In this document: positions 3,222-63,307 of the stretch, in pieces | Layout: the number at the start of each line of letters is the position of its first letter | Numbering within the stretch: the stretch's first letter is position 1 | Source of the DNA: Callorhinchus milii | Taxonomy: Eukaryota | DNA length: 64,000 nucleotides | Direction of reading: 5' to 3' | Assembly: GCF_018977255.1 (NCBI RefSeq) | Contig: NW_024704747.1 | Span: 25,606,001 to 25,670,000 of the forward strand | Notes under the pieces: generated by a model | Database searches by the model: none | What the model was told of the DNA's origin: nothing | The model's input: the letters and a program-made list of their open reading frames with translations, nothing else | Made by a program: the position numbers and the translations under genes

Positions 3222-3508
3222 AGCAGTTTTTAAACTTTGTTAAAGAGAACAGTTAACAAGTAATGAGAAAGGGCTGTTCTCCCCATGGTGCATGTGTGCT
3301 GTATTGAGACAGTCTTCTAACAGGGGTCTGGTTCGTCAGACTGCGACATTTGACTGGACAGGGTTATTCGGTCGTGTCTAATGGAGCAATGTGGTTGGGT
3401 TTCACAGGATTCTGAAAACGTCAACAGCCACAGCACAGAAAACCACCACTGTGCTCCGTGTAGAAAGCGAGAAAGAAATATGATGTGTTTCAATTTAAAT
3501 AATTAAAG
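3222..3508. repeat. Diverged direct repeat, copy 2
   Basis: Same blocks at 3256-3270, 3408-3417, 3420-3430, 3436-3444. Confidence 0.9.
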
Positions 3509-4629
3509 GTAGTGAGAGACAGGTCGTCCTTACACTGAGTGACACCATGCTCTTGAGAGAAATGTCATGCCTCCCATATCAGCTTAATTTATCCCATTTC
3601 CAATATCTGAATAATCTTTGGGGATGAACTAATAATGTGGTGGCAGTATTTTGCTCTTGGAGTGGGGGAAGGTATACGACCAAATGTTAATACTATTCCA
3701 GTGTACAGCGCATGATAGATCCCATTTTAATGTGAGAGCAAAATGAGAGCGAACTCACATGACCATGCTTTTCTATTTTTTTTGATTATTCATAGGATTT
3801 TCTGGGTGGATCCCAACGCTTCCTTAAATGATGATGTTAGAAACTGCATAACTAAATAGTACTAAACTAACTAATATCTAAGTTAGGGTTGACTGGTCAA
3901 AATTCAAGGAAATTTTAATGATATCCAAATATTTAGTTCAATAAAACTAGAGGTTTTCCTTACTGTTCAAAGTGAAAAGCTTTTAATATTCTGCAGATTG
4001 TGCTTAACTTTATGAATACTTAGTAAAATAATAATTTGGAAAAAAAGTATTGGATGTCTTATGATAATTTGTTAATGGGATCCATTCGGTTCAACATACA
4101 GATAGTTTAGCAGATCTGACTGTATCGCAGAGGCAAAGCTCCATCTCCTAAGCAGTTAGAATTGATGGATCTATAAAAACTACCTTCCAGTCGCACTACA
4201 GCACCCATCAGCGACTGTTCACATGAGCACAAATTGATATTAGTTCAGCGTAAGAGGTTTGCAGATTTTGAGTTTAAAGAGCTTTGAGAGATTACTGATG
4301 ACATTATTCCACTTTTAGCTATGATCCAAATTAAAATGGGGGCACATTCTTACCATGGAATGGTCATAATGGATCAGACATAGTGAGCTCCATTCCTTTT
4401 TTATATAAAAATTTAGTTTTTATTTTCGAAATTACCTCCTCGCTATAGCCTGATCACCAGTAACGACTGCCACCATGAGAGGACTAAATAGAATCAGTTA
4501 GCTGGAGGGAGCTATTTCACCGCAGTGTGAGTCCAAGGCATTCAATTGAATATAAACAAGTGGAACAAGTGGGCAAAAGCATCCCAGCACATTGCAAGCA
4601 CAAGCATTCTGGAATATTTGTAAGAACAT

Positions 4630-5155: not shown

Positions 5156-5510
5156 ATGGAGATAAAAGTATTTCACTGAAAAAGCATCTCATATCATGTA
5201 AAGGAACAATGGCACTGTAAAAATAAATGGTAACATTTGGCGATCAATAACCAATTTAAAAGTTTGACACCACATAAAAGTATGACTGCAGATATGATCC
5301 TAGTTTGCTCTCCAAGCAGATATTTGCTGACCTCATCAGAGTGGTAAAGGAGGTAGATATCAGTCTTAAAGGGCTGACCTGTTTTACTTGAAAAGCTTTG
5401 GGACACTGCTAACATTTTGTAAAATTTGTCTTTTGCTGTGAAATTATTATGCATATGGTTCAAGATATCATGAAACTTTAATATTTATCAGTTTGCAAGA
5501 ACACATCATG
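5156..5510 (+). pseudogene. KLHL-like pseudogene, inferred exon 1 (BTB domain 1)
   Basis: MEIKVFH*KSISYHVKEQW...HLAINNQF..PHKS..ILVCS..RY, then after a frameshift KEVDISLKGLT (ISLKGLT 5359-5379)...HFVKFVFCCEI..VQDIM (5458-5472)..YL; resembles BTB consensus HK.VLA.CS.YF / I.LKG+T / +F+YT / VQD+L..A.YL. 3' boundary uncertain. Confidence 0.5.
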
Positions 5511-5769
5511 GTGAAGGACAGTGTTAGATTATTTATAAATGATTGTATTACCCTGTGCAAATCCAATAAACAAATACATAAATACCTTATGGGCTTATTT
5601 ATTTATCTTGCAACTGACTGTGTGGCGCAGAGATGATGGAGCTTTTGAACGTCATTGCCACTGAATCACTTCAATGCATTTGGTTAGGAGGCTGTGCAGC
5701 AAATAGAGATGTAAGTGGTTGCTCTTCTCGAAGCTACTGTTGGGCCTTTTTCATTATCAGATTCCTTAG

Positions 5770-5783
5770 CCACAGGGGGGCAT
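5770..5783 (+). promoter_or_regulatory. CTCF-like motif
   Basis: CCACAGGGGGGCAT vs core consensus CCASYAGRGGGCRC; motif only. Confidence 0.3.
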
Positions 5784-6207
5784 ACGGTTACTTCAGAGTG
5801 TAAATTTATTGCAGCTGCGCTGCTTCTCTGAATGAAAGAAAGAGGGAATCCCAGTAGAATGTGTTTGATTACTAGTCGTGTTGTGGATCGGTTTTAAATG
5901 TATTATTTTGTGCTGTTTTTATTTATTCAACTGATTCGAAACATTGTGCGAAATTTGGAAAAGGTGTTTTAAAAATACCAGATTCTTCATTGGATTCTCT
6001 TTCATTTGTAGATTATAACTTTCTGTTAAGATTTAACACCGACTGCTGTCTGATTTCTATAACATCACAGAAATTACAGATTTTTTTATATATCCTTCTT
6101 TTGAAAACCCTTCCTTATATCAGGTGGAGCTATACGAGTATTTATACAATACTGTATGGCAAGTGCATCACTATTGTATGAGGCAGTCTGTTGTTAATAA
6201 TGTTCAG

Positions 6208-6690
6208 TACTCCAGTCAGACCACACATGGACCAATATGCACATTATTAGTCCCTCAATATAAGGGGTCCTAAGGCAGTGCGGAAGAGAACAGCAAAGCT
6301 CAACCACAGTATTAGCAGAATGAGTTAGGAGATATAATCAGATAAACCAGTTCCCTTCAGTCTTGAAAAGAAAGAGCTCAAGAGAACGTTACAGAGGTTT
6401 ATAATATGTAAACCAGGGAACAATACTTTCTCAGATAAACCAAGACAAGATGGCACATGTTCAGGGTTGTGAAGGGTAAATATAGAACAAACATTGGGAA
6501 GTATTTCTTTACACAGTGGGTAATCAACATCTGGAAATGCTTACCAGGAAGTGTAGTTGATGCTCGGACACTGGACTCATTTAAGTAACAGTTTGATGCT
6601 GTAATGGGAAGATACTAAGATTGGTATTTAGAAAGAATGAGACCAAACTGGTTGAAGGGTCTTCTTCATTCAAACCTTCATTTGAGCTTG
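6208..6690 (+). mobile_element. CR1-clade LINE 3' fragment (old), in inferred intron 1 of the pseudogene
   Basis: Remnants of CR1 ORF2 end: VRPH-like start, ttcagtcttgaaaagaaag (FSLEK), acaagatggcac (TR.H), ttctttacacagtgggtaatcaacatctggaa (FFTQ.VINIW). Confidence 0.8.
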
Positions 6691-6720
6691 TAACTAAACC
6701 TCTGTCACATTTGTTTGCAG

Positions 6721-8332
6721 ATAAGAAGATTAAGAATAAATACAAACTACACTGAGACATGGAGTCCATTTAGTTGCAAACATTTTTCAACACAAATAAT
6801 TGTAGAATTTCCCTTCATTTGGTGCTTATCTGAAGCCAGAAGGCTGAGCATAAATACATAGCAAAAAAAAGTGTTGGTTTATTTATCAACAAGTTCCCAG
6901 CATTTGTTGACACCAACACAAGTTGCCATTTCTTTGGTTGAAAAACTTGAAACTTACAAAGAGTTATTCTGTTTTCAAAAATGTCTAAATATTTTCATTT
7001 TGGAGATTTTAGTTCAAATTCCAATTCTCTAGCCATTTACCACAACCTTTTTTTTAAAAGATAGGTTTTATTGAATCGTTTACAAAAGTTGCTGGCAGAT
7101 TTCCCAGGTTTCAACAAATAAACAGTGATCAAGAGCACCCTTTGCCATTGCATTGCATAATTCAAAGAATTAATTATTAACACAAGAAAAATAGTCAATA
7201 AACTATCCAACAGCAAATTTGCTGCAATGAGATTTGTTAATAATATCACTGTGTTCTCTTCAATATCAACTCTCCTCACCCTTTTGCACTGAAGTTCCTT
7301 TGTAGCCCTTTCAAAATGCTTGTTTTCTACAACTACCAGGTCCTCAGATGTATTTTTTGCTAATATTAAGTGTGGAAAAGCTTGTTCATTGACAATTTTT
7401 AATGTGTTCCCAAAGCTCTGGAACTCTACTTTTTCTTTGAAATAGTTAAAAAGTACACGGTCAGCTGATTAATGCTTTACACAGGTATAAACACAGAAGA
7501 GCTACAACAAATCATCCTTTGCAAGTTACGTATTATTGGAATTCAGAAGATCATAAAACATTAAATATTTTATCCATAAATGAGCCAAGTCATTCGTAAA
7601 TAATTAGTTTTAAATACTCTTACTCCAAACCGCCTTTCAGTTTTGTAAAATCGGTTGTAATTCATTCCACTGATATTTAATGGAAATATGAAACAGTGAG
7701 AAATTGTGAACTTTCAGCAATGTACTGTATTTGGCTGTTAGGCATAATTGCATCTTCACATTGTATTGTTTGACAACGTTTTACTCCACTTTCTCAAGCA
7801 GGGCTCAGTAAGTTTGCAAATACATTTTGTTTACAAGTGATGTGCATTATTTCAAATCAAAATCATCAACAAACACGTTAAATTAAAGGGAATTGAATGC
7901 AACTGACATTCCCAAGTTCTTTAATGTTGTTTATTTTGGATTTTCTCATACAATAATTTCTCTAACATATCAGAGTGCTGCAGGCCTACAATTAAGATGC
8001 ACTTGAATGTAATATTTCTGGATAAAAATTTAAATCATCCTTCTTGCAGGTAATTGCACATAGCTATAGCATGAGAGGTTGAACATATAGCCTCCTAGGG
8101 CTATCAGTTGCTCAATTATCCAAACCCTCCTAAATGAGTCATTTCTAACTGGATTCACAGACATTTATGTGAAGTTAACCAACAGCATCAGTTTTTGGTT
8201 CGAGCCAACACAGTTACATAAATGTATATAAAAGGCAATGTAATAATCTTCCACAAATGAATATTTCCAGTGTAAACAACTGTGTCCAATTTCCAGCAGT
8301 CAAACAGTTAAGTGGAGTGTTTTTCAGAAAAA
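6721..8332 (+). pseudogene. KLHL-like pseudogene, inferred large exon 2 (BACK1-BTB2-BACK2-BTB3-BACK3)
   Basis: Acceptor tttgtttgcag|6721. BACK1: LQTFFNTNNC (6774-6803), IAKKSVGLFINKFPAFVDT, EKLETYKELFCFQ. BTB2/BACK2: LLNRLQKLL (7068), KSTLCHCIA*FKEL (7131-7172), ACFLQLPG (7318), FLLILSVE, PKLWNS, INTEELQQII. BTB3/BACK3: CIFTL-IV*QRFT-H (7749-7789), LFTSDV (7827), KHVKLKGIE (7871), ILDF (7933), SAAGLQ (7974), FLDKNLNHPSC (8015), ESFL-LDSQTF (8136), CVQFP (8281). Donor AA|GTAAGG at 8333. Confidence 0.65.
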
Positions 8333-9266
8333 GTAAGGGGATGTTTTTGTGAAAGCCGTAGTACTGTGTGAACTGAATTTCATGAAAGGTTTAAATATAG
8401 GTAGGGTGACAGAAGGGATGTGGTTCCTTTAAAAGCATGCGAAATTCAAAGTCTCTTTCCCTTTTATAATTTCATAATACAGGATATACAGGACGTTAGT
8501 CTCTCATTTGATCATTGTCCGCCTCATATTTCCACAAGTTTCCCTGTTGGATGGAAAAACTCCCATTAGAGCCTAGTTATTAAGATCCAGTGCCAGAAGT
8601 GCTGCGTGATTGTAACAGCTTCCTCCTTGTGCTCTAATACCCAGCTAGGGATGTTGACCTCATCTGGGTAGCGGTGACCTGGGTGACAAATTAGCTTCCT
8701 TTTCCTCCACGGCTTCACTTCCTAAAGAGCCTGCTCCAAGGTCACCTTGCTTAAATGTTTGCAGTTTTGACATCGAATCTTTGAGGCAAACCTGTGTTTG
8801 TTCTTTTCTTTTGTTCGCAAGATCCATGGTTCCCAAGGTTCAAATCAGGAAACGTAACTTTGGCCACGCATAAAAAACAATTAATAAAAAAAATTACTAC
8901 AAGTTTTACTACAACTATTAGAAAGCAAAATACATTATGTCAGAAATGTTTCTCCTCATAAAAGGGAAAATAACAAATCCCTGTACGTAGTTTCCCAAAT
9001 TGCTTATAAAAAGTTGGTTACTTATTAATAATAATAGTAATAATAACTGTCAACTTGTTAACTGTTATATACGTTTACTTCATTGATATGTATACTATTT
9101 GATATGTAGTTAGGGAGCTATCATGCTATCAGCTGAGAAAGAGAGTAGTATTGATAATTCTGCATTTTAAATATTTGAGCTGTTCAGATGGTAGAAAATA
9201 TTCATTTTTATTCCGTCTTAAAAATAGTAAAATTGATGAAAAACTGAAATAATGGCAATGTATGTA

Positions 9267-10714: not shown

Positions 10715-10775
10715 CAGGCAATAGAACAAGAGGGCATATGTTTAGAGTTGCAAAAGGCAATTTCAAGACAGACAG
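10715..10775 (+). mobile_element. Short CR1 ORF2 fragment
   Basis: NRTRGHMFRVAKGNFKTD, CR1 C-terminal TRGH motif; similar to 6443-6490. Confidence 0.6.
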
Positions 10776-13197: not shown

Positions 13198-16100
13198 ATA
13201 AATAATAACAATCATAATAAGAGTAAAAAGCCATATTTCTTTGTTCAGAATAGTTTTACAAAAATGCAAAGTGGCAAACCTTCTCACCAAATTATTAAAG
13301 CACGTAACATTTTAAGTGCCAATAATAGAGATCCGCATATTATTTTTGAGTGGTTGTAAATTGCTAATATGAATAATATCTTAAGTGAGCATTTTAATTT
13401 GATGACAATTTGCTAATACAACAGCAAAATTATTAACAGTGGCACAACTACTATAAACTTTTTCATAGCTACCATCACAATACAATCAATGCTCATCATG
13501 GTCGATTTTGTTAAAAGAATTTTCTCAGGTTGGATTATGAAAACACTTGATTCAGAAGCAGCTACAGTGTGAAGAAGCTTTTACAAGGTACGAAGATTTA
13601 CTGTGCCATTCACAAAGTGCTCAACATGAAGGCGAGATTTTACATGAATAATGAAACGGAGTATCCTTTTCATCCGTCATTTATAATGATTGCAAAGTCA
13701 AGAATTGCACCACGGCCCGATTTAAAGATGGCTTTTCACAGACTGTACTTTCATTCGTCTGTGTGTCTGTTGCAAAACAGGGATTGCTATAGATTACGAG
13801 CCCTGAATTTCAGTGTGGACATAATGAGCAAGCCATACCCTTTTCTTAATTGGATCGTTCTTGCAGACTCAGTAATATAAAATACAGCATCTCATTGTTG
13901 CCTGGAATAGTAAATCTGTGCATAATGTCAGCAGTGGGCTCCAGTTTCTGGTGTATTTCATATGGGGTGGTGTGGAGCACTGTAATGAAGAACCCTGATT
14001 GATATTTATTTTCAGTGCCAGATTCAGCTTGCATATCCACTTCTGAACCACTGGGTGGTACTAGTCATTCATTGACTCAGGTCCCAGCAGCAAAAATGAT
14101 GATAACATTTAAGACTTTTAGACTATAGAGCACATAACATCAACCACCAGAGATTTTGATGTGAATGTAGTTTGAAATCATTCTACAATTGTCCAACTGT
14201 TGTTATCGCTAGAAATACCTGCATCATGTGTAAGTAACTGCTAGCAGTCAGCTTGCACATACATCCTCCTTAGGAAGGAGAAGGAAATCTTTTAACCTTT
14301 GCCTTTTATTGATTTAATACCATAACTGGACTATTATAACCCAGAGAACAAGCAGACAGCATGTCATGTTAAAAAGGCAGCTGCAATTATTATTGCTAAC
14401 TTCACCATTGGCATTATTGTTGAGCTGGATTTGTAAGGCTGTCAGATTGATGTAAAGAAGATAGCTGACGACTTAAAGCACATTAATAAAGTGAAATCTA
14501 TTCATTGCAAATCAGGTCAATAATATAACTTTTCGTTATAAAATAAACGATGAAAAGAAAACAAATCAAATGAGACTGTTCTTGTGTTAATAAATATTTT
14601 TTTTGTAATACCTTCTTAGTATTTTACTGAGTTCAAAAACAGTGAAACCTCTTTTAAAAGATGAGTCCAGGGATTTAAGGATAAACGCAGTGAGAAGTAC
14701 AAAGGGTACCTGCTGGGTTCCTCCTATTGGTAAAATATTTTAGGGTGTAAATTAGTCATTTCATCTGTTCACAGTAGTGAAGGTGCAAATTTCCTTCTAG
14801 TAGCTAAAACCGGTTTCTGAACAAGCAATTGAGTAAATAATTGATCTAGAGTTTTCCCCTGCCTCTGAATCTCACAGAATACAGAATTAAATAATTATGG
14901 TTGGGTTTTATGTGCAGTTTATAAACTGCTCAGAATGCTTCATCTTTGTAGAAAATACAGACCATTTTGTCTTGGGACAATGTTAATTGCTGGGCTTCAG
15001 TTATATTTAAATTATATTTATATAGTACTTTTGAAATAAAATAAACATGTTGAAGTGCTGCAAAGATAACATTGATTAGAAATGAGAGAACGTTGTTATG
15101 AAGGCAAAGCTAATACTGCGGCTAAGTCTGTGCCGGCAATGTCCTAGAAATTTAAGCTGCCATTGTAATAGCCCAGGAAGAGAGATGACATGGAAATGAG
15201 AGTCCACAGGCCAATGATTGTCAAGTAGGATTTGATCCATGCTAGAGGATCTAGAGAGCTGATCTGTACTGTCTGAACTGTACCAATGCTCGCATCACTC
15301 ATCCCGGAATTGATCTTATGGATTGACGATGGGAATATTGATGTCGATTTGTGGAATCATTGCAGCATTGCGTAGATAAGCAAAGCACAGTGATCACAGC
15401 CCATATTTGGAGCAATGTAAATGTAACATACGAATGCTACCTTCAGAAAAGTTCCCAGAATTGAAAAAATATTTTGAGAATACTCCAAAAAGTATGTCTC
15501 GGGAGAATATAGTTGTGTTTCCTTCAGTAAAAGAAAGATCTGACCCACGAAAAATCACTTTAATGCTTTCGTTTCATTGTTTTCTGTGTTTTCTTTAGGT
15601 TCTCCCTCAGGTATTAGTGAAGGAGAGAGGGAGTGGACACATAACCTACTTTCATAACTGTGTGCCTGTGAAGCTAAGCGTTCCGCAGAAGTGGAGAGAA
15701 CAGTAACAGCCTCTGCTCAGTGTCTCTCTCTCTGACACTTCACCAGCACACTCGGGAATTGTGAATAAGAACAAATGGGCTGTATAATAAGGCTTACTTT
15801 TCTAATGAGGAGTAATATCTCTATCCCACTTTCCAATTGTGCCCTTACTCTGAGTTTGTGTCTGATGGATACTTCCAAGGTCCCAAAATTCTGTCTCGTC
15901 AAAATTTAAGATTTTGCAGATTGTGGAAAATTCCTTAAATCAGTGTTAATTTGGAAACGGGTTCTTTTTAAACAGAAACTCCAAATTAAAGCTGAATTGA
16001 AAAGTGTTCTACCATTCAGCATCACCTTAAATGTTAAGGCAAAACCATCCTATGGGCTAAGAACAGGTAGAATTTCAAGCCTCGGGAATTTTAATTGTCA

Positions 16101-43739: not shown

Positions 43740-44068
43740 AATAATAATAATAATAATACTCGCATTAGATTTAGGGCTTTTCACGTCTTCGAGATGTCTC
43801 AAAGCGCTTCACAGAATATTCTCTGAAGTGAATTGACTGCATATTTGTGGGCAAAACGCAGCAGCCAACTGCGCAAACCAGTGTCCCACAAAGAGTTGTG
43901 GATTGAGTGACCAAACTCTTATTGTTTTTTTTTTGTTTTTTTTTCTTGAGGGATTATTATCAGGCGTGTGAAGTAAGGAAACTTGTCCAAGGTTTCGACC
44001 TGCTGAGAATCGAACTCAGGTCTTTCGTTTGCGAGGCGAGTGCTCTAACCACTGAGCTACAGGACTCC
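43740..44068 (-). mobile_element. Full-length short-subfamily tRNA SINE
   Basis: Head ggagtcctgtagctcagtggttagagcactcgcc (A box) ...gagttcgattctc (B box); shared tail. Confidence 0.93.
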
Positions 44069-47371: not shown

Positions 47372-47674
47372 GGAGTCCTGTAGCTCAGTGGTTAGAGCAC
47401 TCATCTTGCAAGTGAGACACCTGGGTTCAATTCCAAGCGAAACCTTGGGCAAGTTTCCTTACGCCACACACCTAATAATAATCCCTCCAAAAACAAAAAT
47501 AAATTGGTCATTTTCAATCCATGACTGTTTGTGGGACACTGCTGTGCGCAATTGGCTGCCGCGTTTCGCCCACAAATAAATGGTCAATTCACTTTACAGC
47601 ATATTCTGTGAAGCGTTTTGAGACGTCGAGAAGCCGTGAAAAGCGCTATATCAAATGCAAGGATTATTATTATT
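47372..47674 (+). mobile_element. Full-length short-subfamily tRNA SINE
   Basis: ggagtcctgtagctcagtggttagagcac...gggttcaattcc...ccttgggcaagtttcctta...aaatgcaagg(att)n. Confidence 0.93.
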
Positions 47675-58866: not shown

Positions 58867-59283
58867 TGGGACATCCTCCCAACTTGAAAGGCACTTATAA
58901 ATGTAAATATGTAAAAATATATATAAATATATATTCGATTCCCAGCTGGGTGAAATGTTGGGCAAGTTTCCTTACTCCACATGCCTCTGTTTACCTAGCC
59001 GTAAATAGGAACCTGGTTGTTAGTCGATTGGTGGATTGCTTTTCCGGGGATAATAATCCCTTAAAAAATAATAATAATAATAAATTGGTTCCTCAATCCA
59101 CGACTGTTTGTGGGACACTGCTGTGTGCAATTGGCCGCTGCGTTTCACCTGCAAACCATACAGTCAATTCATTTTACAGTATACTCTGTGAAGCGCTTTG
59201 AGACATCTAGAAGACGTGATAAGGCGCTATATCAAATGCAAGGATTATTATCATTATTATTATTATTAAATTGTTGTTGTTGG
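58867..59283 (+). mobile_element. L2 tail plus 5'-truncated long-subfamily SINE
   Basis: gggacatcctcccaacttgaaaggcac (L2 tail), then ttcgattccc..gaaatgttgggcaagtttcc...aaatgcaagg(att)n. Confidence 0.9.
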
Positions 59284-59932
59284 TTGTCCTACAGTATTTT
59301 AACTGGAGGATGCTTCCACACTGTCAGCTGCCCAAGGACAGATGGCTGTAATTAAACAAGTGAACTGGATGCATTTTTCATTGACAATTAACTTTACCAG
59401 GAACTAATAGAGACTTTCCCCAGTCTGACAGACAGACACCTCTGATTAAATCTGTGCGTACAGAAAAGAATTCATTAATATATCGATCGGCAATCTGTAA
59501 GTCTTCAAGTTCAAACAGCTGTATATTTTACTCATCTGCTGAGATTGTAGTAATAACGGCCACTCGAATGTTATGGAAGAAAATTTGTTTTAACCTTAAA
59601 CCGAAACGTAAGCTTCTACACTGTGATCAGACTTGGAATGCTTCTCTTGGAAGCTGGAGCCAACTGATGAATGGCATTGCAGCCTCTCGTGGCTTGCTAG
59701 AAAACTTCCGTTTGATTGTTCCATGTAATGTTCCAGGATTGATTAAAATGACTGTAATGCTAAGTAAGATCGATTAGACTCGGCTCTTGTTCAGCCCAGC
59801 CAGTTTCCCAGGCCTGGTCGTCAGTTGTGAACTGTGTAACAAGGTCTATTATGAAAAAGAACACGATTTGTATTTATTACAAGGCCAAGAGGAAATAACA
59901 CCAAATAGTACCAGACCACTGCAAGCAGAATA

Positions 59933-62914: not shown

Positions 62915-63307
62915 TTCGGGTTGAAGGGTGATCTGATTGAGGTTTTTTAAATAAAAGAGTGATTCGATAGGATAGAAATTTCCTCTGGTGGGGGTAATCC
63001 AGAACAAGGGGGCATCATCTTAAAATTAGAGCTAGATTGTTTACCAGTGAAACCAGGAGGCAGTTTTTCACCCAAAGGGTAATGGAAATCTGGAACTCTC
63101 TGCCAAGAAAGGCTGTGGATTATGGCTAGATCCATTCACATTTTCAAGACTGAGTGGATTGATATTTATTAGGTAAGGGCATCAAGGGATATGAGGCAAG
63201 GGTGGGTAATTGATTGGTGTTCAGGTACAGATCAGCCATGATCTTATAGAATGGAGGAACAGAGTTGAGGGGCTGAATGGCCTATTCCTGTTTCTAAGTT
63301 GTGTATG
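62915..63307 (+). mobile_element. CR1-clade (shark HER1-like) LINE 3' end
   Basis: GDLIEVF, SRTRGHHLKI, FFTQRVMEIWNSLP; 3'UTR gatcagccatgatcttatagaatggaggaacagagttgaggggctgaatggcctattcctg. Confidence 0.92.

Follow-up and report, generated by a model that had tools for sequence, protein, structure and literature searches.

Introduction

The proteins of the KLHL family are CUL3 adaptors of BTB-BACK-Kelch layout that carry five to six C-terminal Kelch repeats, and one of them, KLHL33, has long forms with two BTB-BACK units. Pfam contains a separate KLHL33-like BTB model (PF21536). KLHL33 has been described as a divergent KLHL that falls outside all clades (PMC10146909). BTB-BACK proteins have been reported to dock CUL3 through the BTB and the 3-box of BACK (bioRxiv 10.64898/2026.03.13.711689). 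LZTR1 has two BTB-BACK domains per chain, for which intrachain dimerisation has been considered possible (PMC8154269). In RhoBTB and in BTB-ankyrin proteins, tandem BTBs have been proposed to form an intramolecular dimer (PMC1257465). A (BTB-BACK)x3-Kelch protein is not described in the accessible portions of the open-access literature on proteins with multiple BTBs and Kelch repeats, on KLHL33 and on shark kelch-like pseudogenes, supplements aside. The same holds for the available excerpts of five individual papers (PMC10179623, PMC10146909, PMC11477308, PMC7672584, PMC3658946). Gene-family tables in supplements might list such proteins.

The locus discussed here lies at positions 5156-8332 of the window, by which is meant the whole 64-kb stretch of DNA that was analysed. 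An initial annotation had read this interval as three tandem BTB-BACK modules in one polypeptide, derived from a triple-BTB adaptor. The reading favoured here, to which an even chance is given, is that an intron-containing gene of the KLHL type (BTB-BACK-Kelch) once stood here and has long been a dead pseudogene. The features considered are collected in Table 1.

Table 1. Positions of candidate features in the window, with the basis on which each was placed.
Feature	Position	Strand	Basis
ATG in Kozak-like context, possible old start	5156..5158	+	sequence; role inferred
Module 1, candidate BTB-BACK in decay, with motifs at 5359, 5458, 5788	5234..5832	+	motif chain
Module 2 (M2), possible extra module split by LINE piece, missing from the initial annotation	5850..6825	+	by eye
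CR1-like LINE 3' fragment, ends approximate	6200..6695	+	tblastx, DNA match
Module 3 (second of the initial annotation), possible decayed BTB-BACK	7058..7681	+	ACFLQL at 7318
Module 4 (third of the initial annotation), decayed BTB-BACK	7753..8310	+	sole module above background
Donor-like GTAAGG directly 3' of last BACK-like motif	8333..8338	+	sequence; splice use inferred
Kelch-like remnant	13469..14400	+	by eye

Coding state of the interval

The window has a G+C content of 38.9% and the aspect of vertebrate non-coding DNA with numerous short interspersed repeats, and it may resemble the DNA of cartilaginous fishes. The interval is AT-rich (33.6% G+C). The five motifs that had been quoted for it are correctly placed (ISLKGLT at 5359, KSTLCHCIA*FKEL at 7131, ACFLQLPG at 7318-7341, LFTSDV at 7827 and KHVKLKGIE at 7871-7897), and they are spread across three different forward frames. 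The phrase "one polypeptide" fails for the sequence as it stands, in which the three frames (1058 codons each over 5156-8332) contain 66, 61 and 52 stops and the maximum stop-free run is 101 codons. With stops in every frame and no long ORF, the phrase is applicable only to an ancestor. The frame opened by the ATG at the start of the interval closes after 7 codons. The locus yields no protein at present.

It is barely conceivable that the locus is alive and gives rise to a functional multi-BTB protein by splicing, editing or recoding. No point in favour of such a locus was found, and it is opposed by the count of 52-66 stops per frame, by the scattering of a single module's motifs over three frames and by a LINE insert.

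A depletion of stops, as a trace of former coding, is absent (cost of 31.5 on the forward strand against 29.5 on the reverse strand, with equally low values in 27 of 200 shuffles). When the 230 stop-free stretches of at least 62 codons in the window were compared with Pfam, two matches at E <=0.005 were obtained and neither was credible, so that no intact neighbour gene can be used for synteny. A match to the Pfam SWEET family (MtN3_slv) at 59065-59352 on the forward strand scored above the cut-off; it sits on the tail of a microsatellite repeat and was discarded as an artefact.

Two observations concern repeats elsewhere in the window. Sequences resembling tRNA-Ala lie within repeats at 43995-44066 (reverse strand) and 47374-47445 (forward strand) and are probably SINE heads. 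Two stretches of about 250 bases, at 1925-2173 and 3246-3511, each have one similar place elsewhere in the window.

A LINE insert in the interval

The interval is broken up by a fragment of a LINE, the family of which we take to be CR1. Two more partial copies of the piece are present in the window. By tblastx it was matched to 62995-63120 (E 5e-4) and to 10723-10773 (E 0.03), and its DNA identity to partial copies (43/65 and 35/49) exceeds that of all 200 shuffles. Pfam was silent on the piece when it was searched in single frames by windows of 80 codons.

The longest open stretch of the interval, 5876-6178 on the forward strand, continues past a single stop in the reading frame of the LINE. 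By eye, this stretch can be read as the end of a BTB with the start of a BACK, or as the continuation of the LINE reverse transcriptase, which we presume it to resemble. Part of 5850-6825 may be further LINE sequence.

Candidate BTB-BACK modules

By eye, four candidate units were recognised (~5230-5830, 5850-6825, 7060-7680 and 7750-8310), which together would occupy the 2.7 kb that remain once the LINE is removed. The last of these gave the clearest signal. Its chain comprises seven motifs with order and spacing kept (at 7827, 7877, 7932, 7974, 8015, 8136 and 8284). Scored with 18 short patterns, the chain at 7827-8292 reached 43 bits, the top value on either strand, although these patterns were composed after the sequence had already been viewed and the figure thus belongs to after-the-fact motifs. 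The null maxima for such chains were 14.5 bits (40 shuffled strands) and 16.4 bits (1000 region shuffles).

A block chain with a profile made from fetched proteins only was meant to take out the analyst's choice of motifs. This chain regained six of the seven motifs of module 4, over 7827-8301, and it was equalled by 4/60 and 2/60 shuffles and later by 5/300 and 24/300. As many tests were run, the resulting p of 0.02-0.08 is not strong. Module 4 also gave 8.1 bits when threaded by hand, a procedure that is biased towards a match, and it provides an 84-column in-register alignment that spans the end of the BTB and the start of the BACK. Its whole-domain z was 0.9-1.8. On these sequence comparisons, module 4 is weakly supported as a putative BTB-BACK unit above chance, and a KLHL-type origin for it is plausible.

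Module 1 is the next candidate. Its motif chain was the second best of the window at 17.6 bits and was above every shuffled strand. Its block chain was equalled by 21/60 and 6/60 shuffles, and by 141/300 and 37/300, and is not significant; threading by hand gave 2.7 bits. A BTB strand pattern was matched twice in the window (0.05 expected), and the two matches fall in modules 1 and 4. The evidence for module 1 as a BTB-BACK unit is suggestive.

No motif chain was found in module 3 or in module 2. For module 3, the block chain was equalled by 43/60 and 25/60 shuffles, then by 249/300 and 118/300, and threading by hand gave -0.7 bits. The ACFLQL motif at 7318 is the single match of its pattern across the six frames of the window, and the best whole-domain z of the module (7131-7341) was 1.82, a value reached by 0/60 shuffles in one of four settings. 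For module 2, a z of -1.4 was obtained, with 12/60 and 45/60 for the shuffles and -1.6 bits for the threading by hand. Of the three BTB-BACK sets first proposed, the last is thus retained weakly and the first as suggestive, and the middle one found no backing in the tests and is unsupported.

On the reverse strand, a 143-codon open frame lies opposite module 3 (7040-7468); it has no Pfam match.

Three is not secure as the number of modules. It had been proposed that the ancestor formed an intramolecular pseudo-dimer and left one BTB free. With four modules this proposal would fail, since it needs an odd count. The modules were also compared with one another, and no consistent mutual similarity was detected (none by tblastx; the lowest of 24 comparisons was at 3/100 shuffles). 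In a self-comparison for internal repeats, the best score was 66, against 45-125 across 12 control stretches.

The candidate Kelch region downstream

The stretch downstream that looks Kelch-like is preceded by an acceptor-like AG at 13467-13468, the phase of which would suit the donor at 8333. It gave no Pfam match in 23 windows, ranked 98 of 630 among tiles with a z of 0.0, and had a block chain that was equalled by 8/100 shuffles. A peak of the Kelch profile near 57.8 kb on the reverse strand was rejected as a G-rich repeat.

These data bear on the distinctly unlikely alternative that only the last module is real. The locus would then be a single-BTB KLHL pseudogene from ~7700, or a set of separate fragments of neighbouring paralogs, and the upstream part would be chance or LINE. 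That module 4 alone passes any objective test agrees with this, as does the open stretch at 5876-6178 that joins the LINE frame and has, we presume, a reverse-transcriptase-like appearance. The alternative is countered by the chain of module 1, which tops every shuffled strand. Separate whole genes, moreover, would need a Kelch-like stretch between modules 1 and 4, and none was seen there (ranks 158-628 of 630).

Whole-domain tests and their power

Domain profiles tolerant of frameshifts were made from the fetched proteins (8 and 10 domains) and were skewed to KLHL2/3/17-like sequences. Two aphid proteins (P0001, P0002) entered the comparison with the window only through these profiles. When single fetched proteins were compared with the window, no match was found in the region, and local, glocal and two-state profile scans showed no peak there. 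With a codon-level forward model, the four candidate modules gave z values of -2.3 to +1.8, which equal background, and tiles of the region ranked 149-837 of 838.

The power of these tests was simulated. A typical domain that had been held out gave a mean z of 11.9, 8.3 and 4.6 at 0.3, 0.45 and 0.6 substitutions per site, respectively. An ancestor with only ~30-60 bits before decay gave a mean z of 1.5-4.0 at the two heavier settings. From this simulated power and the background scores, it follows that a moderately decayed KLHL of typical sequence can be excluded, but not a divergent, very old one.

The same results can be compared with the view that the interval was never coding and that AT-rich non-coding DNA produced hydrophobic look-alikes of the motifs once three frames were read and frameshifts were allowed freely. 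This is held to be somewhat unlikely. Background scores where simulated power is good are what it predicts, and it is also in line with the missing stop depletion, with the match of chains in shuffled DNA to modules 1-3 and with library searches that were negative throughout. It accounts poorly for module 4, whose chain is ordered, spaced and regained by an independent profile. The weight of the background scores is also reduced for a divergent ancestor under heavy decay, for which the simulated power drops to a mean z of 1.5-2.1.

Searches for related sequences

Library searches take single frames, and their power is cut by frequent frameshifts. Pfam BTB, BACK and Kelch models were matched by 0/12 long frames and by 0/72 windows of 80 codons (stops as X); 12 of these 72 windows had weak matches, all unrelated. 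PDB searches returned no related match, and the HHalign probability was at most 0.2%. In the atlas, the natural ORF 5876-6178 had a best score of 0.79 and was assigned to no family. A stack of the three frames or of module pieces, aligned by MAFFT for use as a profile, was out of register and was abandoned.

Intact relatives were sought by phmmer with one frame of 6702-8333 against 1,835,955,588 representatives (0 matches at E 0.001) and by a word-indexed search (5723 candidates scored, 0 matches), and none was found by either. Single-frame read-throughs run against 50% representatives were likewise negative. For a gene this decayed, searches for an intact relative are low-powered, and the idea of a triple-BTB ancestor is therefore not refuted by them.

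Proteins of similar layout were collected by two other routes. A short BTB pattern led to three loci in genome contigs, two of which encode BTB-BACK-Kelch proteins. Searches for long relatives yielded 4 proteins out of 663 candidates and 10 out of 7999, of which 13 were distinct; the second query included words taken from the window's own motifs. The (BTB-BACK)x3-Kelch architecture that had been proposed did not appear among these 13, an absence that is weak evidence. Two of the 13 fetched proteins, from aphids, have BTB-BACK-Kelch twice, one from a sturgeon has an exactly repeated start, and the rest are single-unit. When the atlas was queried with the part of the sturgeon protein that carries both BTBs, ordinary clusters of 540-593 aa were listed; absence is weak evidence here too.

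The sturgeon protein (P0005, 1375 aa) had been suggested as an ortholog by its length and was rejected, as it gives no alignment to the window. Its exact N-terminal duplication and unrelated tail are likely to reflect a mis-prediction or an assembly error that mimics a tandem-BTB protein.

Collections of plasmids and phages held no BTB-BACK protein. Intron-free BTB-BACK-Kelch genes of animal type were seen in two bacterial genome-bin records (L002, 2767-4557, forward strand; L003, 2020-3246, reverse strand). These are probably contamination.

Proposed origin and its implications

If the locus is a decayed KLHL-type gene, its large exon would have borne at least the BTB-BACK unit at ~7750-8310, and probably one to three further BTB-BACK units upstream. 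The large exon would have been followed by one for the Kelch part, near 13.5-14.4 kb. By analogy with the family, the ancestor may have been a CUL3 substrate adaptor, in which the BTB and the start of the BACK would dock CUL3 and the Kelch part would take the substrate. Intrachain pairing of adjacent BTBs, as proposed for RhoBTB and LZTR1, would also have been possible. After the gene was lost, stops, frameshifts and the LINE insertion would have accumulated.

A bolder form of this origin is put forward tentatively, as a possibility that is itself doubtful. The locus could be what is left of a vertebrate gene that encoded three or four BTB-BACK units in one 2.7-kb exon, followed by a Kelch propeller. 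In related fishes such a gene may survive intact under no more specific a label than kelch-like. A single-chain adaptor with four of these units would contain two internal pseudo-dimers and could bring several CUL3 to each substrate-binding propeller without oligomerisation. Intact relatives with three or four tandem units, if there are any, would offer a natural way to test how the CUL3-to-substrate ratio is set by BTB dimerisation. As it stands, the locus is a probable pseudogene without function, and its value is only that of a pointer.

Comparison with known systems

Among predicted proteins, the two from aphids (P0001, P0002) carry two BTBs in one chain, arranged as BTB-BACK-Kelch twice, and the one from sturgeon (P0005) has two BTBs in one chain with its N-terminal stretch repeated letter for letter; in none of them are there three tandem units. 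RhoBTB and the BTB-ankyrin proteins have two BTBs, and their partner domains differ from those of the locus. LZTR1 also has two units, and its Kelch domain is N-terminal, whereas that of the locus would be C-terminal. The KLHL family is alike in the motif order of module 4, which is followed downstream by a stretch that looks Kelch-like by eye. The criteria tested do not justify assigning the locus to this family, although module 4 resembles a member of it. The locus differs from the KLHL family in having no ORF and in that it may have held several BTB-BACK units.
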